This document shows, one piece after another, positions 5,596-30,799 of a stretch of DNA of 37,642 nucleotides. Below the pieces are notes generated by a model. The model was not told the origin of the DNA, ran no database searches, and saw nothing but the letters and a program-made list of their open reading frames with translations. Every line of letters begins with the position of its first letter. The stretch's first letter is position 1. Position numbers and translations under genes: made by a program. The stretch lies in UHGV virus genome UHGV-0029174. One strand, 5' to 3'. The DNA is from a virus.

Positions 5596-5829
5596 ATGGT
5601 TAACAAAATGGCGCGGAGGTATGAGGTGGATGATAAGGTGTGGAGGTTGACGGTGTTCCTTAGTGATGGCAGGGAAATGACTGTTGCCCTGTATAAAGAT
5701 GAAGGCGAGGCACTTACTGACGCGCTATTACTCGCTGAAGACGAAAGGGTTTTGGGGTACAGGATTAAACCTGTCAAATGGGAGGTTATAACAAAAAATG
5801 AAAAAATACAGGTTAGACGTGTGGACTGA
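5596..5829 (+). CDS. hypothetical protein (78 aa), first gene of antisense cassette between L and M
   Basis: ATG 5596 with SD AAGGAA; in frame with track ORF 5551..5829. Confidence 0.5.
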   Translation: MVNKMARRYEVDDKVWRLTVFLSDGREMTVALYKDEGEALTDALLLAEDERVLGYRIKPVKWEVITKNEKIQVRRVD

Positions 5830-6148
5830 TAAATGCGAATGGGAAAGCATGGGGCTATTTGACACATTTGAATCAGCGCGTGATGAAGGTTGCGAATTGC
5901 TCCGCTGTTGGTCTAACGCTCGTGATTATTATGTTATTCCTGTACAAGTACCGGATAAGGCGGAAGAGATGAACCCGAAAGACATTAACTTTAACGTCAA
6001 TGTTGAATTCGCTGATTCTATGGATCAGTCTTGCCCTGGTGAAATACACGCAAAAGGTTTCCCGGCAGACAATCCAGAAGCAAAACGCGAATACGAAAAA
6101 GCTGCGAAAGACTTCTGCATAGATAACCTGGGCGCATTCGATAAATAA
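5798..6148 (+). CDS. hypothetical acidic protein (116 aa)
   Basis: Track ORF; overlaps upstream gene end; GGGAGG upstream. Confidence 0.5.
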   Translation: MKKYRLDVWTDKCEWESMGLFDTFESARDEGCELLRCWSNARDYYVIPVQVPDKAEEMNPKDINFNVNVEFADSMDQSCPGEIHAKGFPADNPEAKREYEKAAKDFCIDNLGAFDK

Positions 6149-6157
6149 GGCGGCAAC

Positions 6158-6406
6158 ATGGGGCGGCGCAATCACGGTGATTATGTGTACACGTTGAAAC
6201 AGGCCGCCCGCCTCATCGGTTATCATGAGCACGAATTTATTGATTTGCTGATTGAGCGCGGGATACTGTACCAGGTCTGTTTAACACTGTACCCAAAAGC
6301 GAAATACCTACAGGAAAAGTTATTCATCATCATGACGGATGAAAACCAGGTTAATCATTCATTCGTCACTGATAAGGGCGTTAATTATCTGCGTGATAAC
6401 TTATAG
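6158..6406 (+). CDS. hypothetical protein with HTH-like segment (TLKQAARLIG...IERGIL), possible DNA-binding regulator
   Basis: Track ORF; SD AAGGCGG; HTH call is by eye. Confidence 0.45.
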   Translation: MGRRNHGDYVYTLKQAARLIGYHEHEFIDLLIERGILYQVCLTLYPKAKYLQEKLFIIMTDENQVNHSFVTDKGVNYLRDNL

Positions 6407-6416
6407 GTGACAGATT

Positions 6417-6533
6417 ATGAAAATAGAAGTTTTGGCGCTAATAATAATGGGATTGATAGTGTTTGGCGTTCATGCTGTAGATCTGGACTGGAAAACGATA
6501 GCGGAAAATATAGCGTTAATGGAAATGGGATAA
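6417..6533 (+). CDS. small membrane peptide (38 aa, MKIEVLALIIMGLIVFGVHA...)
   Basis: ATG 6417 with SD AGGTGA; hydrophobic N-terminus; ends just before terminator hairpin; below track size cut-off. Confidence 0.35.
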   Translation: MKIEVLALIIMGLIVFGVHAVDLDWKTIAENIALMEMG

Positions 6534-6537
6534 TAAT

Positions 6538-6566
6538 AACCCCGCCGTGGCGGGGTGTTTTTTTTA
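6538..6566 (+). terminator. rho-independent terminator (CCCCGCC-gtg-GCGGGG then T8), weaker on the minus strand
   Basis: GC stem-loop followed by TGTTTTTTTT, between convergent genes. Confidence 0.6.
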
Positions 6567-6776
6567 ATCGTAGGATAGAAATGCTACTTCTTTGCCATCC
6601 CAAGTCGTACAGCCGATATATCCATCACCCATGTCATGAAGATACCACGTCTCACCGTTATCAGCCCGTACAGTGAGATCATTAATTTCATAGTCGGCAA
6701 ACAATGTGAAAGCGCCAGTGCGCTCCACTACACAAAAATAAGGCATACCCCCTCCCTTAATTAATAACTTGCTCAA
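6564..6776 (-). CDS. hypothetical protein (70 aa)
   Basis: Track ORF directly downstream of M. Confidence 0.45.
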   Translation of the reverse strand: MSKLLIKGGGMPYFCVVERTGAFTLFADYEINDLTVRADNGETWYLHDMGDGYIGCTTWDGKEVAFLSYD

Positions 6777-8132: not shown

Positions 8133-8162
8133 TAGCCCCGGCATTGTGCCGGGGTTTTGTTT
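8133..8162. terminator. terminator hairpin between convergent plus cassette and tape measure gene
   Basis: 8-bp stem CCCCGGCA/TGCCGGGG, 3-nt loop, then TTTTGTTTATTT on plus strand. Confidence 0.65.
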
Positions 8163-10503
8163 ATTTCCTGCGAGGTTGTAACATCCCTCCGGGCCGTTGC
8201 GATTCCCTTGCCATCATTTTCATCGCGACGCGTTCCATCGTCTGTTCAAGTCTGCGACTGTCTTCGTCGCTAAATCCGTTTGTGGTCTGTACGGTGATGT
8301 TAACAGGCATATTGATGCCGCCACCACTGAAGAGATCGCGACCAGGAATTACCCTACCATTCTCGCCAGGAATCATATACTGACGCCCGTTGCTCGTCTG
8401 GAATAGCTCTGGTATCCCGTGTTCCCCTACGCGATACAGGCTACCACCATTAACAGAACCACCATTATAACGCCCGCCACCAAAGATTGACGTTGCCAGC
8501 GACATGATCGCAGAAAGCGCCGCAGCACCAGCCGCCGCCCAGCTACCACCAGTTGACGCCGCAGTCGCCGCCGCCGCCGGGGCCGCCGCCGCTGCAATCT
8601 GGCCTTGTGCCGCTACCGCACCAGCCGTGGTACTTGCTTGCGTGGCCTTGCTCTGTGTTTCCATCATCAACTGATCTGCTATCCAGTTGGCGGCAATTTC
8701 TGACAGTTTGTTGCCAACGGTGTTAAGTATGCTGCTTCCCAGGTTGGCAAAGACCTCGCTTAACGATTGAGTACCGTTTAGCAGGCCGGTAAGGGCATTA
8801 CCCATGCCACCCTTTAGGCCGCTAACACAAGCACCAATCAGGCTGTTTGTGTCGCTTTGCGCCTGCCATTGTTCCCATTTCAGATCCCGGATCTGTTGTT
8901 CGTGTTCCAATTGCGCTTGTCTCTGTTGCGCCTCTGTAGCGCCCAGGTCCAATAGCATTTGCTTTCTTACTGCCCATTCATTCTGTGCCTGTTTGATTGG
9001 GTCAATTTCGCCCTTAAGCTGGTCCATTGGACTAACTATTTGCGACCATTTATCACGCAATTCATCTACAGGGATTTGCGCTAATTCTTCCTTCAGTTCT
9101 TTGCCGATCCCTTTTTGCGCTGCGCGGTATTCAAGGAGTGTGATTTTACCCTGGGCGAATGCAGCATCAATGGCCTTGCCGTTCTCTAACGCTTTGCGCA
9201 TAGCGGCGGCGTCTTTGTTGTACTGGTCAGAAACGCTTATGCCTTTGTCACCAAGCCGATCAGCTTCAGATTTCTTCTCTTTTTTCTGTTTTTTCGGTTT
9301 GTCTACTGGCTTGTCGAATCCGGTAATCGCTCCGTCATTGGCGGCATTCTGTTCATTTTTCCTTGCTTCCTCTGTAGCCTGGATTGCTGCGGTCAGATCA
9401 TCCTGTAATTGCATGACCTTGCCAACGGTCTTACCGTATTTCTTCTCGTAGTTGCTGTTATATTCGTCGGTTTGCTCTCCTGCGACCTCCTTCATCCATT
9501 TGTAGGCGTCCATTAGTGCCTTGATTGGCGTCACCATTGCGATGATCTTCTCGGCCACCTCGCCAGCCTTGATTCTGACATCTTCAAACATGTCGATGAA
9601 TTCGCCACCAGCCGTCTTCAGGGTGTTAAAGCAGGTTTTAGCGAAATCAGCGCCTTCACCTAAAGCCTTAACACCTTTCGTTACAAGATCGATACCAGCA
9701 ACAACCGTATCGGATACACCGAAAAGATCATCCAATTGTTCAACAAGTCCCATAACCTCGACTTTAAGCTCATTCAGAGCCATGCCGGATGTGCGCGGCA
9801 ACTGCGCAAACTTCTCGTTTGTTTCCTGCGTAGCCGCCTGGATCGCGTTAACCATCCTTTCTGCCGTGATCTTACCGTCCAGCATTTCGGCGCGGAATTG
9901 GCCCATTGATAACCCCATCTGGCGGGCCATTGTCTGTACGATGGTCGGGGTGTTTTCTAACAGGCTATTGAATTCTTCAGCACGCAACACGCCACCGTCG
10001 ATAGACTGACGGAATTGACGCATTGAGTTTGACATCTGCTCCGCTGACGCGCCGCCCAACGCCCCCATTTTCTGAATCGTACCTACCAGGTTAAGCAATT
10101 GCCCTTCAGTGGCGGACGTGTTCTTCAGTGAGATAGCCAGACCTTGCCATAGTTCGCCAGTATCCTTCAGGCTTTGCCCAGTTTCCCTGGATATTGCTTT
10201 CAGCCCGTCGAAAACCCGTCCGGCGGACTCCGCATCGCCCGTAAGCATTTTGATTTTTACGCGAAGCATTTTTGCTTGCTCCGCCATATCCATGAATTGG
10301 CGCACAGCCTCCGCAGCAATTAGCAAATGGATAACCCTGGTCAGTGCCTTGATGGATGTTTTCAGGGTGTTTACCTGGCGGTCAGCCTGTTTTGCGCCGC
10401 GCTCTATACGGTCAAAAGCCTGGTCGGCCTGGCGTTGTGCAACGAGAAGTTGACCAGTTTTCGCGTCAACTTCGTAATAAATTGTACCTACACTGGTTGC
10501 CAT
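8161..10503 (-). CDS. tail tape measure protein (780 aa)
   Basis: Largest ORF in tail module, upstream of M-L-K-I-J; helical Q/A/E-rich composition with Gly/Ala-rich C-terminal segment. Confidence 0.85.
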   Translation of the reverse strand: MATSVGTIYYEVDAKTGQLLVAQRQADQAFDRIERGAKQADRQVNTLKTSIKALTRVIHLLIAAEAVRQFMDMAEQAKMLRVKIKMLTGDAESAGRVFDGLKAISRETGQSLKDTGELWQGLAISLKNTSATEGQLLNLVGTIQKMGALGGASAEQMSNSMRQFRQSIDGGVLRAEEFNSLLENTPTIVQTMARQMGLSMGQFRAEMLDGKITAERMVNAIQAATQETNEKFAQLPRTSGMALNELKVEVMGLVEQLDDLFGVSDTVVAGIDLVTKGVKALGEGADFAKTCFNTLKTAGGEFIDMFEDVRIKAGEVAEKIIAMVTPIKALMDAYKWMKEVAGEQTDEYNSNYEKKYGKTVGKVMQLQDDLTAAIQATEEARKNEQNAANDGAITGFDKPVDKPKKQKKEKKSEADRLGDKGISVSDQYNKDAAAMRKALENGKAIDAAFAQGKITLLEYRAAQKGIGKELKEELAQIPVDELRDKWSQIVSPMDQLKGEIDPIKQAQNEWAVRKQMLLDLGATEAQQRQAQLEHEQQIRDLKWEQWQAQSDTNSLIGACVSGLKGGMGNALTGLLNGTQSLSEVFANLGSSILNTVGNKLSEIAANWIADQLMMETQSKATQASTTAGAVAAQGQIAAAAAPAAAATAASTGGSWAAAGAAALSAIMSLATSIFGGGRYNGGSVNGGSLYRVGEHGIPELFQTSNGRQYMIPGENGRVIPGRDLFSGGGINMPVNITVQTTNGFSDEDSRRLEQTMERVAMKMMARESQRPGGMLQPRRK

Positions 10504-10764: not shown

Positions 10765-11262
10765 ATGAAGCGGTTAGTAAAAGTTGCGGTAGCTGCGGTC
10801 ATGGCGGTATTCGCGGTCAATGCAAATGCAAATAATGAAGTTAGCAAGATGTGTGATGTGCTGTATCCAGCCTACGAACAAGCATATACAATGGCAAATG
10901 CAAACTTCTTTTCAATTGGCAGACACGGCATTAACTGGGAATATTTCATCTTAAATGAAGATAGCAGGACCAAAAAAGGTGACGCTGAAATGATAAAAGC
11001 GCACGGTGAAAGTTTCGCTTTCGTGATGGCTGCTGCTGAAAATAAACAAAATGACAATGAATTTAAAAACTTTGTCGCTGGACTTGCCATCATGGCTGCT
11101 GAACGGGCGGTAAAAGATCACGACAACAACGCTTATGACGCTGCCGACGGGATGGCATTAGATAGGGTAAGAATTGACTTCAAAAACATGTGCGTCAAAG
11201 AAGGCGCTAACATGTATAAAAAAGTAATAGATAAACACCACGAATATTATATAGGTTATTAA
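10765..11262 (+). CDS. secreted/periplasmic protein with signal peptide (165 aa), antisense within tail module
   Basis: SD GGGGGTGGG; N-terminal MKRLVKVAVAAVMAVFAVNANA signal-peptide-like; own promoter and terminator. Confidence 0.6.
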   Translation: MKRLVKVAVAAVMAVFAVNANANNEVSKMCDVLYPAYEQAYTMANANFFSIGRHGINWEYFILNEDSRTKKGDAEMIKAHGESFAFVMAAAENKQNDNEFKNFVAGLAIMAAERAVKDHDNNAYDAADGMALDRVRIDFKNMCVKEGANMYKKVIDKHHEYYIGY

Positions 11263-11292
11263 AAAAGGCCCGGCTAATCCCGGGCTTTTTCT
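11263..11292. terminator. bidirectional rho-independent terminator (GCCCGG-ctaat-CCGGGC flanked by A6 and T5)
   Basis: A-run/stem-loop/T-run readable on both strands between convergent genes. Confidence 0.7.
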
Positions 11293-11963
11293 TGCTCGCT
11301 ATTTTCCATTCTTTTTAGTATCTCCATAGCCTCCCTCATTCCATCGTCATAAGCCTTTTTATCCAGTAATACATCTGGTCGTTTTTGTTTGTTTCTTGCT
11401 TCTGGCGGCGTTTTAGCACGCACAGCGGCCCTATATCCGGTCATTGTCATGCCCCATGCTTCAGATTCAGACAATCCCAGGTGAGCAACGGCAGAATAAA
11501 CATACTCAAGGATGTCGAATGTCTGCTTATAGTCGCCTTCCTGCTCCTCGCCAGCGTCTTCATCTGGTCCGTCACCAATTAAGCCGTGATACATGCAGTG
11601 TTGCGCCAGCGTGATAACATCATCAACTGGCATTATTCCCGGTTTTAATCTCAATTTACCCGAAGGAGTGAACCAGCATTCGCCTAATAACGGGCCTGTT
11701 TCGTCGTCTGAGCAACATTTCAGTATGTGGATGGATGTTTGCACTATCTCACCATAACACCGCGCCATAATGCGATTGCGGAGGTCTGGATCTGTAGGTA
11801 ATCGTGAAGGGTATTTGCTGCCGTGGATAAGTGCGAAATATTCGACAAGCTCACTATCATTGCCGATTTTAGCCATCGCAGCAAAGCAAGGATTAAACTC
11901 ATAGCGCTTACCGTTCACCACAGCCGCAAATTGTCCTGTACGAACATGGATCATAGTATTCAC
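11274..11963 (-). CDS. tail protein, possibly tail assembly chaperone (229 aa; acidic internal segment)
   Basis: Position between major tail candidate and tape measure; no homology recognised. Confidence 0.35.
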   Translation of the reverse strand: MNTMIHVRTGQFAAVVNGKRYEFNPCFAAMAKIGNDSELVEYFALIHGSKYPSRLPTDPDLRNRIMARCYGEIVQTSIHILKCCSDDETGPLLGECWFTPSGKLRLKPGIMPVDDVITLAQHCMYHGLIGDGPDEDAGEEQEGDYKQTFDILEYVYSAVAHLGLSESEAWGMTMTGYRAAVRAKTPPEARNKQKRPDVLLDKKAYDDGMREAMEILKRMENSEQEKARD

Positions 11964-11998
11964 CCTAAAAGGAAGGGGCTAAATAGCCCCTTTATTGT

Positions 11999-12475
11999 TT
12001 ATGCGGCAACCGGATCGGTTACATTTACCTGGCCAGCGCTTTCGCACTCAATAGACCAGGTGGAAACATCATCGTTAGGGTCTTCTTCTTTGAATGAGGT
12101 ACAAAGAAACGGACCTTCAGTTACGTCAACCGGGGAAACAAGTTTTAGCCACACGTAAGGCTGCGATCCGGTTGCTTCACTAGGGCTAACAACGTGCCGT
12201 TTCAGTTCTTTTTGATTATGGATTGCTTCGGTACGTGATACGCCGTCGCCGGAGAAAGAAACAGATTTGTAAGTTACCATTGATTCTTTCGTGTAGTCTG
12301 CTGATTTGTCAGCGGTGGCGTCTGCGGTTTCCCATTCTACGGAAAGCGTTTTACCACGCATCATGCCTAACACTTTATATGCTTCGTTATTGGGTTTCGC
12401 ATTAGGGCAAGCGATAGCAAAGAATACAGCCACGTCGCGGCCCAGGAATGCGCCCTTTTCGCAAGTCTGAGACAT
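11999..12475 (-). CDS. putative major tail (tube) protein (158 aa)
   Basis: Position upstream of chaperone and tape measure in siphovirus order. Confidence 0.45.
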   Translation of the reverse strand: MSQTCEKGAFLGRDVAVFFAIACPNAKPNNEAYKVLGMMRGKTLSVEWETADATADKSADYTKESMVTYKSVSFSGDGVSRTEAIHNQKELKRHVVSPSEATGSQPYVWLKLVSPVDVTEGPFLCTSFKEEDPNDDVSTWSIECESAGQVNVTDPVAA

Positions 12476-14268: not shown

Positions 14269-14297
14269 AAAAAAAATCCCCGGCATCGCGCCGGGGA
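14269..14297 (-). terminator. rho-independent terminator after the major capsid gene (CCCCGGC-gcgat-GCCGGGG then T8)
   Basis: Minus strand GC stem-loop followed by TTTTTTTT between capsid stop 14316 and next start 14250. Confidence 0.65.
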
Positions 14298-26727: not shown

Positions 26728-26744
26728 CCGTCTTTCAGTGGCTT

Positions 26745-26785
26745 ATATATAACAAAATGGCACTGCCTAAACAATGCCATTTCGT
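26745..26785 (-). promoter_or_regulatory. internal promoter-like element with palindrome ACAAAATGGCA-N12-TGCCATTTcGT and extended -10 (TGT-TATATA)
   Basis: 11-bp inverted arms with 1 mismatch; minus strand CCATTTTGTTATATA upstream of ATG 26727. Confidence 0.4.
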
Positions 26786-26827
26786 ATACATTGTGATACA
26801 AGTCACATTTTGCGCAATTAACTTTTA

Positions 26828-27079
26828 TCAGAAAACCCCTTTATAATCGACCGTGTACTTTGCAACCAATTTCCAGTCACAATAGTTTTCCATGTCGCGC
26901 GGTTGCCATCCTTTCATCCACACAGAACTACGTGCAGCGTGACGGCGACAATAGTCGTTAAGGTCTACAACACACCACGGCTGAAGGACAAGCATGTATC
27001 CTGCCTCGTTAACCAGGATCGCCATCTGCTTTCCTGTTGCCTTATCTTTCGCCCGGAAATAACTTACCCTGATTTTCAT
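26828..27079 (-). CDS. hypothetical protein (83 aa)
   Basis: Track ORF; SD GAGGTAA. Confidence 0.5.
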   Translation of the reverse strand: MKIRVSYFRAKDKATGKQMAILVNEAGYMLVLQPWCVVDLNDYCRRHAARSSVWMKGWQPRDMENYCDWKLVAKYTVDYKGVF

Positions 27080-27294: not shown

Positions 27295-27522
27295 TTAACC
27301 CTCGACTACTTCCAGCCCGCGCCCCTTATCGCCAACGAAGTCGCCCAGGCTGAACGTATACGACCATGCCGGATTTATGTAATGGTCATCAGCGCCAGCG
27401 GCGATTAAATCAGCACCGTTAATCATGCAAGTGACATCATCGCCATGAACGACATTAACCACCTTACCAACAACCTGTTTCAGTGACGGATAACCGTGAT
27501 CGTGCAAGAATTTTACCTTCAT
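27295..27522 (-). CDS. hypothetical protein (75 aa)
   Basis: Track ORF; start overlaps upstream stop. Confidence 0.5.
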   Translation of the reverse strand: MKVKFLHDHGYPSLKQVVGKVVNVVHGDDVTCMINGADLIAAGADDHYINPAWSYTFSLGDFVGDKGRGLEVVEG

Positions 27523-27752
27523 TCCTCTGTCTCCCAGCGCTCAATACTGATTAAAAAGTCACGGATAGCGTGGCGCTCGTCGCGCGTTGGTTTGCGCTTA
27601 CGGTAAATTTTAAAATCGAACCATTCCTTTTCCTGGTCGAAATCCAGATCGTAAGCAAGCGCCTCAATGTAACCGCATTCGTGATACTGGTACGCCACGC
27701 CAGCACGAACAAAAAAGCGGGTTTTATCCCGCTTGTGTTCATAGATACGCAT
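27519..27752 (-). CDS. hypothetical protein (77 aa), first gene of the island between Q-like gene and lysis
   Basis: Track ORF; SD GGGG; preceded by 108-bp intergenic region. Confidence 0.5.
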   Translation of the reverse strand: MRIYEHKRDKTRFFVRAGVAYQYHECGYIEALAYDLDFDQEKEWFDFKIYRKRKPTRDERHAIRDFLISIERWETEE

Positions 27753-27860
27753 ATTTACCCCGTTATGCAGTTGTGTAGCTGTCAGTCAGTATTTCATCTT
27801 TCATTCTGGCAAGCTGTGCGAAATTCGTTAACCAGTTTTGCAAATAGATGTTCCTTTAAT

Positions 27861-28064
27861 TTAGGCTTCATTGTCTTTGCTCCGTCCGTAAATATGAACA
27901 GGCTCAATTGGCACGGCTGGTAATTCACCTTCGTTTAATGCGCTTGCCATGCCCAATATTAAACGCGCTTCAGCACCGGTAACTTTCTTGCACCATGCAC
28001 CGCCCGTTTTATCTTCGAACAAGATAACAGCAAACTGATCGTTTATTTCCAGCTTATCCATCAT
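27861..28064 (-). CDS. hypothetical protein (67 aa), start overlaps Q-like stop
   Basis: ATGA overlap with upstream stop. Confidence 0.45.
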   Translation of the reverse strand: MMDKLEINDQFAVILFEDKTGGAWCKKVTGAEARLILGMASALNEGELPAVPIEPVHIYGRSKDNEA

Positions 28065-28783
28065 TCACCCCGTGTCACTCGTTTGATTTCGTTGTCAGCC
28101 CGCGCCTCTTCTTTGAACAATTCAGCAATGGCGTCTTCATAGAAAGCCCGGTATTTCTTCCACCATGTTGATCGGCTTACCGGGAAAACAAGCTGATTAA
28201 CCGCCTGCCGGACAAGATCTACCGGGAAACGCGAGTACCCACGCCCGCCGCAGTGCTGGCACGTTTTGAACACTGGCATTTCCGCCGCTTCGCTGGCTGC
28301 TTTATCCGGTACTTCGCCACGGCCCTTGCATTGTTTACAATGATTGCGAACTGTCCCATGCCCCTTGCATTTTTTGCAAAGGTGTTTTTCTCCGTATTCG
28401 TCAAACGTAAATTTATATCCGCCGCACTCCATACAAGTTTTTTCCGTCGCGGCGCTTTGGCAATAATCCCGAAACGCGAAAACGGCAACAAGAATAATGA
28501 GATCATTGCGTTTGGCCTCGTCCAGTTCCATAACGTATTCATAATCTTTTGCCATAGCCCTTAAACGCTCTGTAAGCAAAACTACGGCCTTATGTTTTTC
28601 GGCTTGTGATAGTTCCATCTTCCCTAAAAAAGCGCTGTAACCAAGCTCTACGCGCGATTGCGCCATGCCTGCGGCAGTTAGTGCATCCGTAGTATTAAGC
28701 GCATCCGGGGACGTGCCCCGGCTTTCATCTGATAAACGCGGTGATTTTGGGAAGTGGAATTTGAGAATAGATTCCAGATTCAT
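28061..28783 (-). CDS. putative late-gene antiterminator (Q-like) with four CxxCxGxG zinc-finger repeats
   Basis: Position after ninG/rusA and before lysis genes; CMECGG, CKKCKGHG, CKQCKGRG, CQHCGGRG repeats; homology not verified. Confidence 0.45.
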   Translation of the reverse strand: MNLESILKFHFPKSPRLSDESRGTSPDALNTTDALTAAGMAQSRVELGYSAFLGKMELSQAEKHKAVVLLTERLRAMAKDYEYVMELDEAKRNDLIILVAVFAFRDYCQSAATEKTCMECGGYKFTFDEYGEKHLCKKCKGHGTVRNHCKQCKGRGEVPDKAASEAAEMPVFKTCQHCGGRGYSRFPVDLVRQAVNQLVFPVSRSTWWKKYRAFYEDAIAELFKEEARADNEIKRVTRGE

Positions 28784-28968: not shown

Positions 28969-29370
28969 TCACCCCCACATATTAGTTTCGTATTCACCAA
29001 TATCCGGTAGCAGGTCGCCGCGTTCGCGAACCTTAATAAACAATCGCCCGCCTTTTACCTTCCGGCAGCGAACAAACTTCATTACGTCAACCTGGCTGTC
29101 ATCGGCCCAAAAACCGGAATAAGTTATAGCGTCAAACAATGCTTTCCCCACATTATCAATATCACGGCGGCGGGCGTCTGGCGGGGCAATATACACGGTT
29201 ATTGATAATCTGCATTGAAGACTTATATCAAGATTGAGTAGCTCTATAATATCCTTCACCTGCTCCCTGTATTCTTTACCTTCCTTGCTTATGTAGTTGA
29301 CTCCCCTGGCATGGCGGTAATATTTATTCGCCGTTGGCGGATACGGAAGTGTCATAGTGTATTCGTTCAT
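28969..29370 (-). CDS. rusA: Holliday junction resolvase RusA
   Basis: MNEYTMTLPYPPTANKYYRHARG and APPDARRRDIDNVGKALFDA resemble E. coli RusA (TLPWPPSNNRYYRH; DRRRRDLDN); ATG 29370 with SD GGTGA. Confidence 0.85.
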   Translation of the reverse strand: MNEYTMTLPYPPTANKYYRHARGVNYISKEGKEYREQVKDIIELLNLDISLQCRLSITVYIAPPDARRRDIDNVGKALFDAITYSGFWADDSQVDVMKFVRCRKVKGGRLFIKVRERGDLLPDIGEYETNMWG

Positions 29371-29851
29371 TTCTGTCACCATGTCCAGAGTGAAAATTAT
29401 ATTTTATCTCTGCTTCCTCTCTTGCTTTAACAGCATCGCTAAAGCTATCAAAATACCCTAAATTATAAAGCACCCCTTTAACTCTTATATATGAATGCCA
29501 TTTACTTAACGGCTTATACCAACGAACACCGACCCTACCACTCTTATTTCTTGAGCTTAAACTAGCATTTTTCATGTTTTCTTCATGAGTTACTAACCTT
29601 AAATTTTCTATTCTGTTGTTATATGGTATATGGTCCAAATGATCTATCTCGTAACCTTTAGGAATCGGGCCGTTAAACATTTCCCAAATAATACAATGGC
29701 AAAGATGATGTTTATACTTGTACATCACCCTTACATAACCTATCCCAAATCTATTTCCGGCGATGTCACCTTTATTGACGTTCCCGCTAGGTTTTATTTT
29801 CCAGTATAAGATTCCGTCGTTGTATTCAAATATATCATGCCAATTAATCAT
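29324..29851 (-). CDS. HNH homing endonuclease (HNH_3-like/AP2-like) between ninG and rusA
   Basis: IWEMFNGPIPKGYEIDHLDH...NNRIENLRLVTHEEN; overlaps rusA 5' end by 47 nt. Confidence 0.8.
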   Translation of the reverse strand: MINWHDIFEYNDGILYWKIKPSGNVNKGDIAGNRFGIGYVRVMYKYKHHLCHCIIWEMFNGPIPKGYEIDHLDHIPYNNRIENLRLVTHEENMKNASLSSRNKSGRVGVRWYKPLSKWHSYIRVKGVLYNLGYFDSFSDAVKAREEAEIKYNFHSGHGDRNERIHYDTSVSANGE

Positions 29852-30453
29852 GCTACCTTTCTCCTTAAGGCGTCTAATTTCGCCTGATAAACTTTAATGA
29901 TCTCCTTACATTCTTCGATCGTCCATTTGTGAGTCTCGTTATTATTTTCTAATGCCTCCACCCTTTCTAATCCTATTTTTTTTATTAAATTTATTCTGTA
30001 TAACTCAACATTGCCGTCTAATACCTGATTGCAATGTCGGCATTGTAGGTTTACGTTATCCTCGTTAAAGCGAAGGTGTCCGGCTGCCGCTACTGTGCGC
30101 CAGTGTCCAGCATCAGCGCCGCATTGTTCGTAATAATAAGTCCCGCAAGATATACACGGCTGTCCTGCGTCACGTTCGCGGATATAGGCATTAAATACCG
30201 CTTGTGCCTGCTTTAACCAGTAGCTGCGCGGATTTAACTGTTTCCGTTTTCGGTTGCGTTCTTCCCGCTGGCTATCACGGCGCTTCTTCCGTTCCATAGC
30301 CTTCATAGCCTTCTCACGGTCGCGACATAGCTGATCAAACTTCAGTTCTTCCAGACATTCATCGCTGCACCACGTTTGATTGTGATATTTAGGTTCAAAA
30401 AAAACGCCGCAGCATTTGCAACGGCGTCTTATGGGTTTTTTAGGGTTCTGCAT
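29848..30453 (-). CDS. ninG: NinG-like protein
   Basis: PRSYWLKQAQAVFNAYIRERD, QPCISCGT, GHWRT, LRFNE, WTIEECK closely resemble lambda NinG; ATG 30453 with SD GGGGTGG. Confidence 0.85.
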   Translation of the reverse strand: MQNPKKPIRRRCKCCGVFFEPKYHNQTWCSDECLEELKFDQLCRDREKAMKAMERKKRRDSQREERNRKRKQLNPRSYWLKQAQAVFNAYIRERDAGQPCISCGTYYYEQCGADAGHWRTVAAAGHLRFNEDNVNLQCRHCNQVLDGNVELYRINLIKKIGLERVEALENNNETHKWTIEECKEIIKVYQAKLDALRRKVA

Positions 30454-30467
30454 AAAAACCACCCCGA

Positions 30468-30644
30468 TTATTTTTGATTCTCTGTTTCGTTCAGCCTTTC
30501 GGCGTGTCCGGCCCTTAGCCAATGTTCTAAGCATTCGTTGCACTCGTTACAGCCTCCTTCCTTCGTGCTGCATACATTGCACATTGCACGCATGACGCTT
30601 TCTCGTTCATAGTCGTCATGCCATTGGTAATTATCAAAAGTCAT
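30468..30644 (-). CDS. NinF-like small Cys-rich protein (58 aa)
   Basis: ATG 30644 with SD AGGAGA; YERESVMRAMCNVC...C.EC pattern like lambda NinF; below track size cut-off. Confidence 0.5.
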   Translation of the reverse strand: MTFDNYQWHDDYERESVMRAMCNVCSTKEGGCNECNECLEHWLRAGHAERLNETENQK

Positions 30645-30724: not shown

Positions 30725-30799
30725 TACAAAATGGATACGTGCAAACAAGACGAAAAGCGCCATTATGTGACATCAATCACACAATGACGCCATTTTGTA
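30725..30799. promoter_or_regulatory. inverted repeat TACAAAATGG ... CCATTTTGTA (10-bp arms, 55-bp spacer) with -10-like TATACT on minus strand
   Basis: Same ACAAAATGG / CCATTTTGT motif as at 7199, 10546 and 26752; upstream of ninF-like gene. Confidence 0.35.

Follow-up and report, generated by a model that had tools for sequence, protein, structure and literature searches.

The Q gene of the phage genome UHGV-0029174 is a 240-aa ORF with an ATG start, encoded on the minus strand of the window, i.e., the whole 37,642-nucleotide stretch of DNA analysed here (Table 1). The first-pass annotation had assigned this ORF to the canonical Q position, which is borne out by the ORF call and by its upstream neighbours, ninG, an HNH ORF, rusA and a 60-aa ORF, in that order; in phage lambda, Q likewise follows ninG/rusA. 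The genes on one strand are arranged in the order ninG, rusA, Q, lysis, terminase, head and tail, and the Q-to-holin interval consists of approximately 3.5 kb of small ORFs. An Rfam scan of the whole window returned no family reaching its gathering score.

The window comes from a temperate coliphage that belongs to the mEp021-like mEpimmI group. It has the same genome organisation and terminator positions as mEp021 and mEp554, which, together with an E. coli prophage cluster, encode essentially the same Q protein. The mEp554 protein is 99% identical to the window Q, as is the nearest database cluster (P0001, 981 sequences), and mEp021 gp37, encoded at the homologous position in DNA that shows approximately 93% identity, is a collinear 240-aa protein. 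The homologues carry the name 'antitermination protein', the mEp021 record labels gp37 'putative late gene regulator Q', and both diverged relatives and hundreds of prophage copies in E. coli conserve the ORF. The Q gene is a routine lambda-type antiterminator gene, already annotated in relatives; the observation that drew attention to it is real and ordinary. In contrast to the window, mEp554 carries approximately 950 bp after Q that are missing here.

Table 1. Features of the Q gene and of the late region, in window coordinates.
Feature	Position	Strand	Remarks
Q gene	28061..28783	-	Q-lambda-family (PF03589) antitermination protein by homology, 240 aa
N-terminal segment, codons 1-44	28652..28783	-	Homologous to the torus (nozzle)-forming part of Q-lambda, RNA-exit channel
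Extra predicted zinc module, codons 114-148	28340..28444	-	C117, C120, C136, C139; absent in lambda Q
Lambda-type zinc-ribbon arm, codons 149-182	28238..28339	-	C149, C152, C175, C178; tip Glu165 aligned to lambda E134
C-terminal half of four-helix body, codons 183-240	28064..28237	-	Aligned to lambda HTH (H4, H5) and C-terminal helix
Inserted cassette	24533..25269	-	Hairpin 25269-25248 and 232-aa ORF (25231-24533); splits ancestral promoter spacer
Candidate PR'-like late promoter	24508..24548	-	-35 TTGCAA 24548-24543; -10 TAGCAT 24525-24520; AACAAT 24513-24508
tR'-equivalent intrinsic terminator	24466..24493	-	Directly after candidate promoter, 16 nt before holin start; -17.2 kcal/mol
Holin gene, first late gene	24250..24450	-	Pfam scan of lysis genes: PF16080, PF00959, PF03245
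Lysozyme ORF, then Rz-like gene	23757-24329, 23299-23769	-	Downstream of holin
Hairpin with T8 run	14277..14297	-	After 350-aa DUF6260 gene; -17.5 kcal/mol, z -4.1; mEp021 TERM_7
Hairpin, short T run	11972..11993	-	After major-tail-protein homologue (11999-12475); mEp021 TERM_8
Terminator hairpin	11268..11285	-	Between convergent 11274-11963 (-) and 10765-11262 (+); mEp021 TERM_9
Two-way hairpin	8136..8154	.	After tape-measure gene (8161-10503); -16.3 kcal/mol, z -5.0; mEp021 TERM_10

The window protein matched the Pfam family PF03589 (Antiterm) with 103.9 bits, for a cut-off (gathering score) of 26.7, and PHROG 127, 'anti-termination protein Q-like', over residues 1-238 (8.9e-79); the search against antiterminator profiles proposed in the first-pass annotation thus gave clear matches. 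Lambda Q (PF03589; PDB 4MO1 and 7UBJ-7UBN) was matched through PDB 7UBM (7ubm_Q) with E=4e-39, and the two proteins, approximately 35-40% identical, are collinear over their full length with a single insertion at residues 115-147. Structure prediction, also proposed earlier, pointed to the same family: in a Foldseek search with the AF2 model of the window Q (pLDDT 80.4), the eight best PDB matches were all Q-lambda, the top one being 7ubn_Q (E=2e-14, TM 0.76). The Q-lambda fold, i.e., a four-helix-bundle body with a helix-turn-helix and a zinc-ribbon arm, is therefore found in a predicted structure, not in a solved one. The Pfam scan (E<=1) gave no match to Q21 (PF06530) or Q82 (PF06323), and no Q21 structure was among the fold-search matches. 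The protein almost certainly belongs to the Q-lambda family, and the PF03589, 7UBM and fold matches do not bear out the uncertainty previously expressed about its identity. This homology also supports the earlier view of the protein as the candidate late antiterminator, a function that, by analogy with lambda Q, it very probably has.

Residues 1-114 of the window Q align to lambda Q without gaps, with lambda V6 corresponding to I6, and G39 is invariant both among 25 homologues and in the lambda/phi80/SfV alignment. The AF2 model places a helix at residues 3-10, a low-confidence loop at 12-30 and a second helix at 31-44; this predicted helix-loop-helix agrees with the engaged state of Q-lambda, in which the N-terminus forms a helix at 1-11, a loop at 12-31 and a helix at 32-42 (PMC9388147). 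The Q-lambda residues to which roles have been assigned in the same study (PMC9388147) are kept, namely, G39, L58, E134 (here E165), T206 (aligned with T237) and the SAA patch at 110-112. The likeness to lambda Q thus covers the N-terminal torus-forming segment, the helix-turn-helix four-helix body, the Cys spacing of the zinc-ribbon arm and the C-terminal helix. The window Q differs from lambda Q in the second Cys4 module (aa 114-148) at its arm base and in the recognition helices, from which binding to another DNA element is expected.

The first-pass annotation had described four CxxCxGxG repeats in this protein. Four Cys pairs are present, at residues 117 (CMECGGYK), 136 (CKKCKGHG), 149 (CKQCKGRG) and 175 (CQHCGGRG); the exact CxxCxGxG sequence is found in three of them, while the first one deviates (CxxCGGxK). 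All eight Cys are invariant among the 25 homologues, down to 31% identity, indicating that the pattern is not due to chance. The motif had also not been associated with well-studied Q proteins, yet lambda Q itself has two CxxCxGxG copies, CRDCHGTG and CGRCKGVG, and the Q proteins of phi80 and SfV have four pairs each. In lambda Q, the two motifs coordinate the Zn of the zinc-ribbon arm (PMC9388147). The four-pair form is the majority form, found in 30 of 51 full-length family representatives. The phi80 (gp17; CDCC, CKPC, CRC, CDRC) and SfV proteins, although members of the Q-lambda family, are just 35-37% identical to the window Q, and motifs 1 and 2 are joined by a loop of approximately 50 residues in phi80 versus approximately 15 in the window. 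The 'DnaJ-like' Cys repeats are the Q family's own zinc-binding arm, in its common doubled form.

In the arm proper, C149, C152, C175 and C178 align with C118, C121, C144 and C147 of lambda, its zinc-coordinating residues, with identical spacing (26 from Cys to Cys, as from lambda C118 to C144). Between the two knuckles of the arm, AF2 predicts a strand-helix-strand arrangement, which is also that of the lambda arm (PMC9388147). Based on the spacing, the loop-length variation and the predicted secondary structure, the four Cys pairs probably form two zinc sites in tandem, 1+2 and 3+4.

Repeated CxxCxGxG motifs in four copies, with two zinc ions expected, are also characteristic of DnaJ (PF00684) and anti-TRAP. 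A DnaJ-type zinc-finger protein, chaperone- or anti-TRAP-like, that merely occupied the Q position without a role in transcription would account for the four CxxCxGxG-type pairs and for matches to DnaJ_CXXCXGXG (PF00684, 26.4 bits), TIGR02349 DnaJ (24.5 bits) and anti-TRAP RtpA. Nevertheless, these matches are all under their curated cut-offs (32.7, 377 and 65 bits, respectively), and the Pfam scan gave no J-domain or DnaJ_C match, the window protein having no J domain, G/F region or DnaJ C-terminal domains. Additionally, lambda Q is collinear with it over the whole length, only Q-lambda was returned by the fold search, and the isolated Cys region is closer to the Q-lambda arm (E ~1e-3) than to the DnaJ zinc domains 1EXK (E=0.34) and 2CTT (E ~0.3). 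Motifs 1 and 2 are variably spaced while motifs 3 and 4 keep a constant distance, which argues against the nested topology of DnaJ, the topology here being probably tandem. Homology to a non-regulatory zinc-finger family, which the first-pass annotation had named as the finding that would speak against an antiterminator, is thus reduced to a motif-level, sub-threshold likeness. A DnaJ-type identity, effectively refuted by the sub-threshold profiles, the missing domains and the Q-lambda collinearity and fold, is almost inconceivable.

Compared with lambda Q, an insertion of 33-35 residues adds motifs 1 and 2. These two motifs most likely form an additional zinc ribbon of variable sequence where the arm begins. 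The module is hypervariable among otherwise near-identical alleles, being approximately 40% identical between alleles that are approximately 98% identical elsewhere; between the window and P0006, 15 of 37 positions are identical in the module, versus 111 of 113, 31 of 34 and 55 of 58 in the other segments. Across the family, motifs 1 and 2 are 14 to 63 residues apart. The extra ribbon would adjoin residues whose lambda counterparts contact the beta' zinc-binding domain. Instead of being a passive embellishment, the module may act as a functional cassette that can be exchanged; it could alter the docking of Q on the paused polymerase or on sigma region 4, or it could be a target in host-phage or phage-phage conflict. 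Lambda Q, the structurally characterised member, represents the minority single-zinc form, whereas most members carry the second, highly variable module. This extra module is without any structure, though most of the family has it.

At least five terminators had been listed inside the late region, and all five hairpins were found at the places given, on the coding (minus) strand (25269-25248, 24493-24475, 14297-14277, 11285-11268 and 8154-8136), with folding energies of -14 to -17.5 kcal/mol and z values of -2.1 to -5.0 relative to shuffles. Several of them lie in the late region as described; the hairpin at 25269-25248, located upstream of the probable late promoter and at the start of an inserted cassette, is for this reason probably outside the late transcription unit. 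Further hairpins were found at 27734-27715, 26783-26755, about 23130-23098 and 11993-11972, and terminator-like sites were commoner in the window than in shuffles (37 versus 20.4+/-4.7 and 31 versus 20.7+/-4.9). The DUF6260 gene that precedes the T8 hairpin is homologous to gp56 of mEp021, which encodes a virion protein, and the two-way hairpin has its better T run on the plus strand. The mEp021 record marks terminators at places homologous to those of the window, and a terminator of the mEpimmI phages, 't5', is said to be experimentally demonstrated (PMC11893012). The pre-holin terminator, kept in 39 of 39 related sequences and recorded in mEp021 as TERM_5 with a score of 100, is presumed to be the first target of Q. 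Terminators are expected within a Q-controlled late operon, and the earlier argument that they require antitermination is supported, since several intrinsic terminators need overriding by a processive antiterminator.

Our analysis of the region before the holin gene identified a candidate late promoter whose 17-nt A-rich spacer between -35 and -10 is a candidate Q-binding element and whose -10-like AACAAT, after a 6-nt gap, is a candidate sigma-dependent pause element. The block consisting of the -35, 17 nt, TAnnnT, 6 or 7 nt, AACAAT, 14 nt, the terminator, the RBS and holin is near-invariant in 38 related contigs, in which the upstream DNA is mosaic. The layout is also present in mEp021 and, with a different sequence (TATAAT-6-AATAAT-terminator-holin), in a relative with a 48%-identical Q. 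It resembles the PR' layouts of lambda (TAAATT-6-AACGAT), phi80 (TAGATT-7-AACGCT) and SfV (TAAGAT-6-AACGAT): the -10, the 6-nt gap and AAC(G/A)AT, followed by a terminator, are shared with lambda, and the terminator lies approximately 45 nt downstream, as in phi80 and SfV, whereas the leader before the terminator is 194 nt long in lambda. The phi80 record annotates pR', a Q-binding site and two terminators before holin.

The composite promoter/pause pattern has a single match in the window, where 0.19 are expected and 17% of shuffles contain one; for the -10 plus AACRMT core, 1.6-1.8 matches are expected per window. A promoter scan of the window did not pick up the TAGCAT/TTGCAA site, which agrees with 8 of 12 consensus positions. 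Taken by itself, the pattern does not reach significance, and the argument for the loading site thus rests on position and cross-phage conservation. On these grounds, we somewhat favour positions 24548-24466 (promoter, pause element and terminator), 3.5 kb downstream of Q and before holin, as the Q loading site. Q alleles and promoter-spacer alleles did not covary, since each of the two module alleles was found with each spacer allele, a result that is neutral with regard to the site; across the Q alleles compared, the helix-turn-helix region does not vary.

The distance between Q and this presumed promoter sets the window apart from lambda, in which the promoter adjoins Q, and from phi80 and SfV, in which PR' directly follows the Q gene. 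Across the related sequences the distance is 1.9-6.7 kb, which departs from the Q-promoter adjacency of lambdoid phages and speaks against the site before holin. No description of a late promoter at this place was found in the mEpimmI paper (PMC11893012). The group is common in the human gut. Its late promoter, pause element and terminator seem to lie kilobases from Q, just before holin, which would make it a natural example of a Q gene separated by 2-7 kb from its promoter.

Two positions nearer to Q were considered. The first-pass annotation had suggested a promoter and a qut-like site in 27753..27860, and no promoter-like match was found there. Approximately 65 nt of this stretch align to the 3' end of mEp021 gp38/mEp554_54, which are intact genes in those phages, indicating that it is the remnant of a truncated ORF; it is probably not a qut site, and this candidate was rejected. 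Alternatively, a Q of the Q-lambda type could load directly after its own gene, at GTGACA-16-TAAGCT-7-AACGAT (about 28084-28038); the 27734-27715 hairpin, approximately 300 nt downstream, would then be its tR', and the small ORFs after Q would be late genes. Such an arrangement agrees with the canonical Q-PR' adjacency; the AACGAT of its -10 plus AACGAT match (28056-28038) is identical to the lambda pause element, the hairpin is stable and followed by a T run (-16.7 kcal/mol, z -5.2; T9 in mEp554), and one of the small ORFs that separate Q from holin in mEp021, gp41, carries a virion-protein annotation. However, the site lies within coding sequence, namely, where Q ends and a 67-aa ORF begins, and its terminator also lies within an ORF. 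It is missing in mEp021, which has a homologous Q but a different next gene, nothing similar follows Q in the relative with the 48%-identical Q, and approximately 1.6 pattern matches per window are expected by chance. Loading directly after Q is thus very unlikely, and we retain the site before holin.

With the pre-holin loading site, Q would bind the late-promoter DNA element via its helix-turn-helix body and zinc-ribbon arm, as homology with lambda Q suggests, and would load onto RNA polymerase held at the sigma70-dependent promoter-proximal pause. Together with NusA, the N-terminal 44 residues of Q would fold to a ring narrowing the RNA-exit channel; terminator hairpins would no longer form, and the polymerase would pass the pre-holin terminator and those in the head and tail genes. 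As a whole, this account of a Q-type late-gene antiterminator of the Q-lambda family acting as lambda Q does is, by analogy, highly likely. A literature search found no experiment on the window Q protein or its close relatives; in the mEpimmI paper, the N-like Gp17 is the only one tested (PMC11893012).

Since the N-like protein of the mEpimmI phages acts at three nut sites (PMC11893012), the late genes could instead be transcribed mainly by Gp17-controlled read-through from the early rightward promoter, with Q being redundant, auxiliary or inactive. In favour of such a reading, the one-strand gene array that runs from the early region up to holin is densely packed and leaves no gap behind Q. 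Nevertheless, the Q ORF is intact, keeps every family-invariant residue and is conserved in the prophage copies and diverged relatives mentioned above, and a conserved promoter-pause-terminator block lies ahead of holin. Lambda, moreover, has both the N and Q systems, and Q is still essential for its late expression. A late region served mainly by Gp17 is accordingly highly improbable, and antitermination by Q remains the preferred explanation.

In the window, a nuclease-like gene occupies the candidate late promoter. The 232-aa ORF of the inserted cassette has a C-terminal DUF559 (Vsr-like nuclease) domain, and the 3' end of the cassette provides the new -35, the ancestral -35 (TTGTAG) being stranded at 25284-25279; both mEp021 and mEp554 differ from the window in having no such cassette in the promoter spacer. 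This would be a nuclease gene inserted into a late-promoter spacer and rebuilding the -35 with its own 3' end. Because the cassette lies within the promoter spacer, the Q-binding element may be altered. That the three proposals hold jointly, i.e., that the extra zinc module is an exchangeable functional cassette, that Q is uncoupled from its promoter and that the nuclease gene rebuilds the -35, is rather doubtful. A megablast search with the cassette against the phage collection and 5,426 complete E. coli genomes gave no match, and by protein search the 232-aa ORF was found elsewhere.

The Q ORF (28061..28783, minus strand) starts with ATG, comprises 240 codons, and overlaps at its start the stop of the preceding 60-aa ORF. 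The PHROG 127 profile, "anti-termination protein Q-like", matched residues 1-238 (8.9e-79), and the top match among solved structures was lambda Q in the Q-loading complexes 7UBM/7UBN (E=4e-39), aligned collinearly from residue 1 to the C-terminus with one insertion, at residues 115-147. An AlphaFold2 model made from a 25-sequence alignment (mean pLDDT 80.4) was compared with the PDB using Foldseek; the best eight matches were all Q-lambda (top 7ubn_Q, E=2e-14, TM 0.76), and apart from these no match fell below E=1. The Q21 and Q82 family profiles did not match. The first-pass annotation was right to propose this ORF as the candidate antiterminator but wrong to call its identity uncertain; the protein is already known and annotated, and our analysis documents its family membership, predicted fold, conserved functional segments and gene context.

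The window represents an mEpimmI-group phage; members of this group are Nus-dependent, non-lambdoid coliphages of human faecal origin (PMC11893012). The DNA of its Q region is 93% identical to that of mEp554, mEp021, mEp013 and mEp515, and its Q protein is 99% identical to that of mEp554. The mEp021 homologue, gp37 (240 aa), is recorded as "putative late gene regulator Q", and the nearest NCBI protein cluster (981 sequences) is named "antitermination protein". The group paper mentions a Q-lambda-like protein, characterises only the N-like Gp17, and makes no mention of a late promoter (PMC11893012).

The N-terminus of the window Q is predicted to form a helix (3-10), a low-confidence loop (12-30) and a second helix (31-44), which parallels the torus-forming state of lambda Q, where NusA induces a helix (1-11), loop (12-31) and helix (32-42) in the RNA-exit channel (PMC9388147). 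Among the residues of functional weight in lambda Q (PMC9388147), G39, L58 and S110-A112 are retained; E134, at the arm tip in contact with sigma region 4 (PMC9388147), and T206 correspond to E165 and T237; and V6 and L202 are conservatively replaced by I6 and I233.

Eight of the nine cysteines of the window Q lie in four CxxC pairs, three of them exact CxxCxGxG motifs and the first CxxCGGxK, so that the four repeats noted at first pass are present. These eight residues are invariant across 25 aligned homologues with identity down to 31%; the pattern is thus conserved rather than fortuitous. The premise that such a motif is foreign to well-studied Q proteins was mistaken. Lambda Q has two, CRDCHGTG at 118 and CGRCKGVG at 144, which supply the zinc ligands of its "arm"; this zinc ribbon contacts the Q-binding element as well as the beta' zinc-binding domain (PMC9388147). 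The Q proteins of phi80 and SfV have four pairs, as in the window. Compared with lambda Q, the two additional motifs lie on an insertion of 33-35 residues. A search of 1.84 billion cluster representatives yielded 176 relatives; among 51 full-length ones, 30 have four pairs, 10 have two (lambda-like), and the rest are intermediate or fragmentary. The four-motif form is the usual one in the Q-lambda family. The DnaJ resemblance is confined to the motif level: PF00684 scored 26.4 bits, below its cut-off of 32.7, TIGR02349 and anti-TRAP scored far under theirs, and the isolated cysteine region matched the lambda Q arm at E about 1e-3 versus about 0.3 for the DnaJ zinc domains 1EXK and 2CTT.

Across the family, motif 3 follows motif 2 at a fixed distance of 13 residues, and the step from motif 3 to motif 4 is likewise constant at 25-26 residues, the same as from C118 to C144 in lambda; the distance from motif 1 to motif 2, by contrast, ranges from 14 to 63 residues. 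In the model, motifs 1 and 2 flank a beta-hairpin, and motifs 3 and 4 flank a strand-helix-strand unit resembling the lambda arm. Together, the spacing pattern and the predicted secondary structure favour tandem pairing into two zinc ribbons (1+2, 3+4). A nested arrangement as in DnaJ (1+4, 2+3) would pair segment 1-2 with segment 3-4, and a variable segment paired with a fixed one fits poorly with that. The extra zinc module (28340-28444, codons 114-148), a hypervariable and unstudied part of Q that retains interest, shows at least two sharply distinct alleles when the window is compared with the homologous Q proteins P0005-P0008. The YKFTFDEYGEKHL-type and HGHLPNPYCEYTSTI-type are about 40% identical in proteins about 98% identical elsewhere, and they do not follow the promoter-spacer alleles. 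Against P0006, 15/37 positions are identical in residues 114-148, compared with 111/113, 31/34 and 55/58 in the three remaining segments.

Coordinates of the features in the window Q protein and late region
Feature	Position	Strand	Remarks
Cys motif 1, CMECGGYK	residue 117		CxxCGGxK, not exact CxxCxGxG
Cys motif 2, CKKCKGHG	residue 136		exact CxxCxGxG
Cys motif 3, CKQCKGRG	residue 149		exact CxxCxGxG
Cys motif 4, CQHCGGRG	residue 175		exact CxxCxGxG
Candidate -35, TTGCAA	24548-24543	-	then 17-nt A-rich spacer
Candidate -10, TAGCAT	24525-24520	-	then ATTTAC
Candidate pause element, AACAAT	24513-24508	-	14 nt to hairpin
First-pass hairpin	25269-25248	-	recovered
First-pass hairpin	24493-24475	-	recovered; T run, then RBS and holin start (ATG at 24450)
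First-pass hairpin	14297-14277	-	recovered
First-pass hairpin	11285-11268	-	recovered
First-pass hairpin	8154-8136	-	recovered
Additional terminator-like hairpin	27734-27715	-	
Additional terminator-like hairpin	26783-26755		
Additional terminator-like hairpin	about 23130-23098		
Additional terminator-like hairpin	11993-11972		
mEp021 predicted TERM_5	before holin		homologous place in window
mEp021 predicted TERM_6	after lysis genes		homologous place in window
mEp021 predicted TERM_7	after 350-aa virion protein		homologous place in window
mEp021 predicted TERM_8, TERM_9	around major tail protein		homologous places in window
mEp021 predicted TERM_10	after tape measure		homologous place in window

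Between Q and the late genes, conserved non-coding sequence occurs in one block only, just before the holin. In mEp021, mEp554 and 36 related viral contigs it reads, almost invariantly, TTGT(A/G)G-17-TAAAAT-7-AACAAT-14-hairpin, and the DNA just upstream falls into at least three unrelated contexts. A relative with a 48%-identical Q has the same gene order, with TATAAT-6-AATAAT, a terminator, an RBS and the holin start in the only sizeable gap before its holin. The layout parallels the promoters of lambda (TTGACT-17-TAAATT-6-AACGAT), phi80 (TTGCAT-17-TAGATT-7-AACGCT, annotated as pR' with a Q-binding site adjoining the Q gene) and SfV (TTGCAT-17-TAAGAT-6-AACGAT); in all promoters compared, an A-run leads into G(G)A/GAT immediately before the -10. 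The lambda AACGAT is a sigma70-dependent pause element and the Q loading point (PMC9388147). From the conservation of the block and this layout, we propose that 24548-24466 is a PR'/pause/tR' cassette, whose leader RNA would be about 45 nt long. The composite promoter-pause pattern occurs once in the window and in 17% of shuffles, chance predicts 1.6-1.8 copies of a -10 plus AACRMT core per window, and a promoter scan of the window did not flag the pre-holin site; the support for the putative loading site is thus position plus conservation, not motif. As a minor alternative, Q might load directly after its own gene, at 28056-28038, where a second match to the -10/pause pattern contains AACGAT, although this match falls within coding sequence and is absent from mEp021.

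The proposed pre-holin site lies 1.9 to 6.7 kb from the Q stop among relatives, unlike the adjacent arrangement of lambdoid phages, and a Q gene kilobases away from its presumed promoter remains of interest. The location suggested at first pass for a qut site, 27753-27860, does not correspond to conserved intergenic DNA; some 65 nt of it match the 3' terminus of a gene that mEp021 (gp38) and mEp554 carry intact. Comparison of window 27753-27935 with mEp554 (L002 6246-7520) and mEp021 (L001 6246-6500) showed a loss after Q of some 950 bp, which in mEp554 hold three to four small ORFs; of a gp38-like ORF, 108 nt of non-coding sequence remain. The Q-to-holin interval is a mosaic, among relatives, of small ORFs of unknown function. 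Within it, the 100-nt intergenic region 26728-26827 (minus strand) carries a near-consensus CRP-type palindrome (AAATGTGACTTGTATCACAATG, about 26811-26790), then a stable hairpin at 26783-26755 (-14.9 kcal/mol, z -4.1) with T-rich sequence after it; the window's best promoter-like match, TTAACT-18-TATAAT on the plus strand (26818-26847), overlaps this region.

All five terminators of the first-pass annotation were found on the coding strand (-14 to -17.5 kcal/mol; z -2.1 to -5.0 against dinucleotide shuffles), and terminator-like sites are commoner than in shuffles (37 vs 20.4+/-4.7; 31 vs 20.7+/-4.9). Terminators inside a late operon under Q control are to be expected, and the closest published genome already has them annotated. 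The strong terminator-like hairpin at 27715-27734 (T6 run, -16.7 kcal/mol, z -5.2), marked as terminator T9 in the mEp554 record, lies within the first 13 codons of a 77-aa ORF (27519-27752). A long hairpin at 30756-30791 (minus strand; 16 bp, T-rich tail), between the methyltransferase region and ninF/ninG, is the counterpart of mEp021 TERM_4, near which the group paper puts nutR2 of the N-like antitermination system (PMC11893012). Opposite-strand ORFs among the tail genes, 10765-11262 (+) and those around 5800-6700 (+), are flanked by two-way hairpins (11268-11285, 8134-8156, 6539-6556) and resemble the annotated opposite-strand moron modules of mEp021 (gp63, gp65-68, gp71-74).

That the hairpins and the promoter-like block exist and are conserved is observed directly. 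By analogy with lambda (PMC9388147), Q would bind an element in the promoter spacer through its helix-turn-helix and arm and engage the sigma70-paused early elongation complex at AACAAT; NusA would then trigger the folding of residues 1-44 into the exit-channel torus, and the modified polymerase would ignore the 24493 hairpin and those downstream, at about 23130, 14297, 11993, 11285 and 8154. Two of these downstream hairpins are two-way, between convergent genes.

An insertion of about 735 bp (24533-25269, minus strand) sets the promoter spacer of the window apart from all 38 related sequences, and this nuclease cassette lodged in a presumed late promoter also retains interest. The insertion leaves the ancestral -35, together with the initial 10 nt of its spacer (TTGTAG AGCGTAAACA), isolated at 25284-25269. 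Next come the 25269-25248 hairpin and a 232-aa ORF (25231-24533); the final codons and stop of this ORF provide the new -35, with the correct 17-nt spacing, and most of the spacer. This hairpin is probably not a Q target because it lies upstream of the candidate promoter and is part of the inserted cassette. The C-terminus of the ORF matches DUF559 (Vsr-like nuclease) over the Pfam cut-off, and its N-terminal domain is common to Rha/KilA-N-type proteins. The cassette was absent by megablast from 50,697 phage records and 5,426 complete E. coli genomes. At least 17 other contigs encode a 90%-identical protein at exactly this site, 82 nt ahead of the holin; in these, the left junction is in another promoter allele and the hexamers are replaced by TTGTGA-17-TACCAT. 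That the left junction differs between the two cases, and that a promoter-like geometry has been rebuilt in both, suggests a mobile gene, similar to homing endonucleases, that targets the promoter spacer, and the rebuilding indirectly supports selection on promoter geometry at this site. Elsewhere, a 175-aa HNH_3 endonuclease ORF (29324-29851, minus strand; PF13392, 3e-21) lies between ninG (29848-30543) and rusA (28969-29382); since these genes are adjacent in mEp021, it is probably a second free-standing homing-endonuclease insertion.
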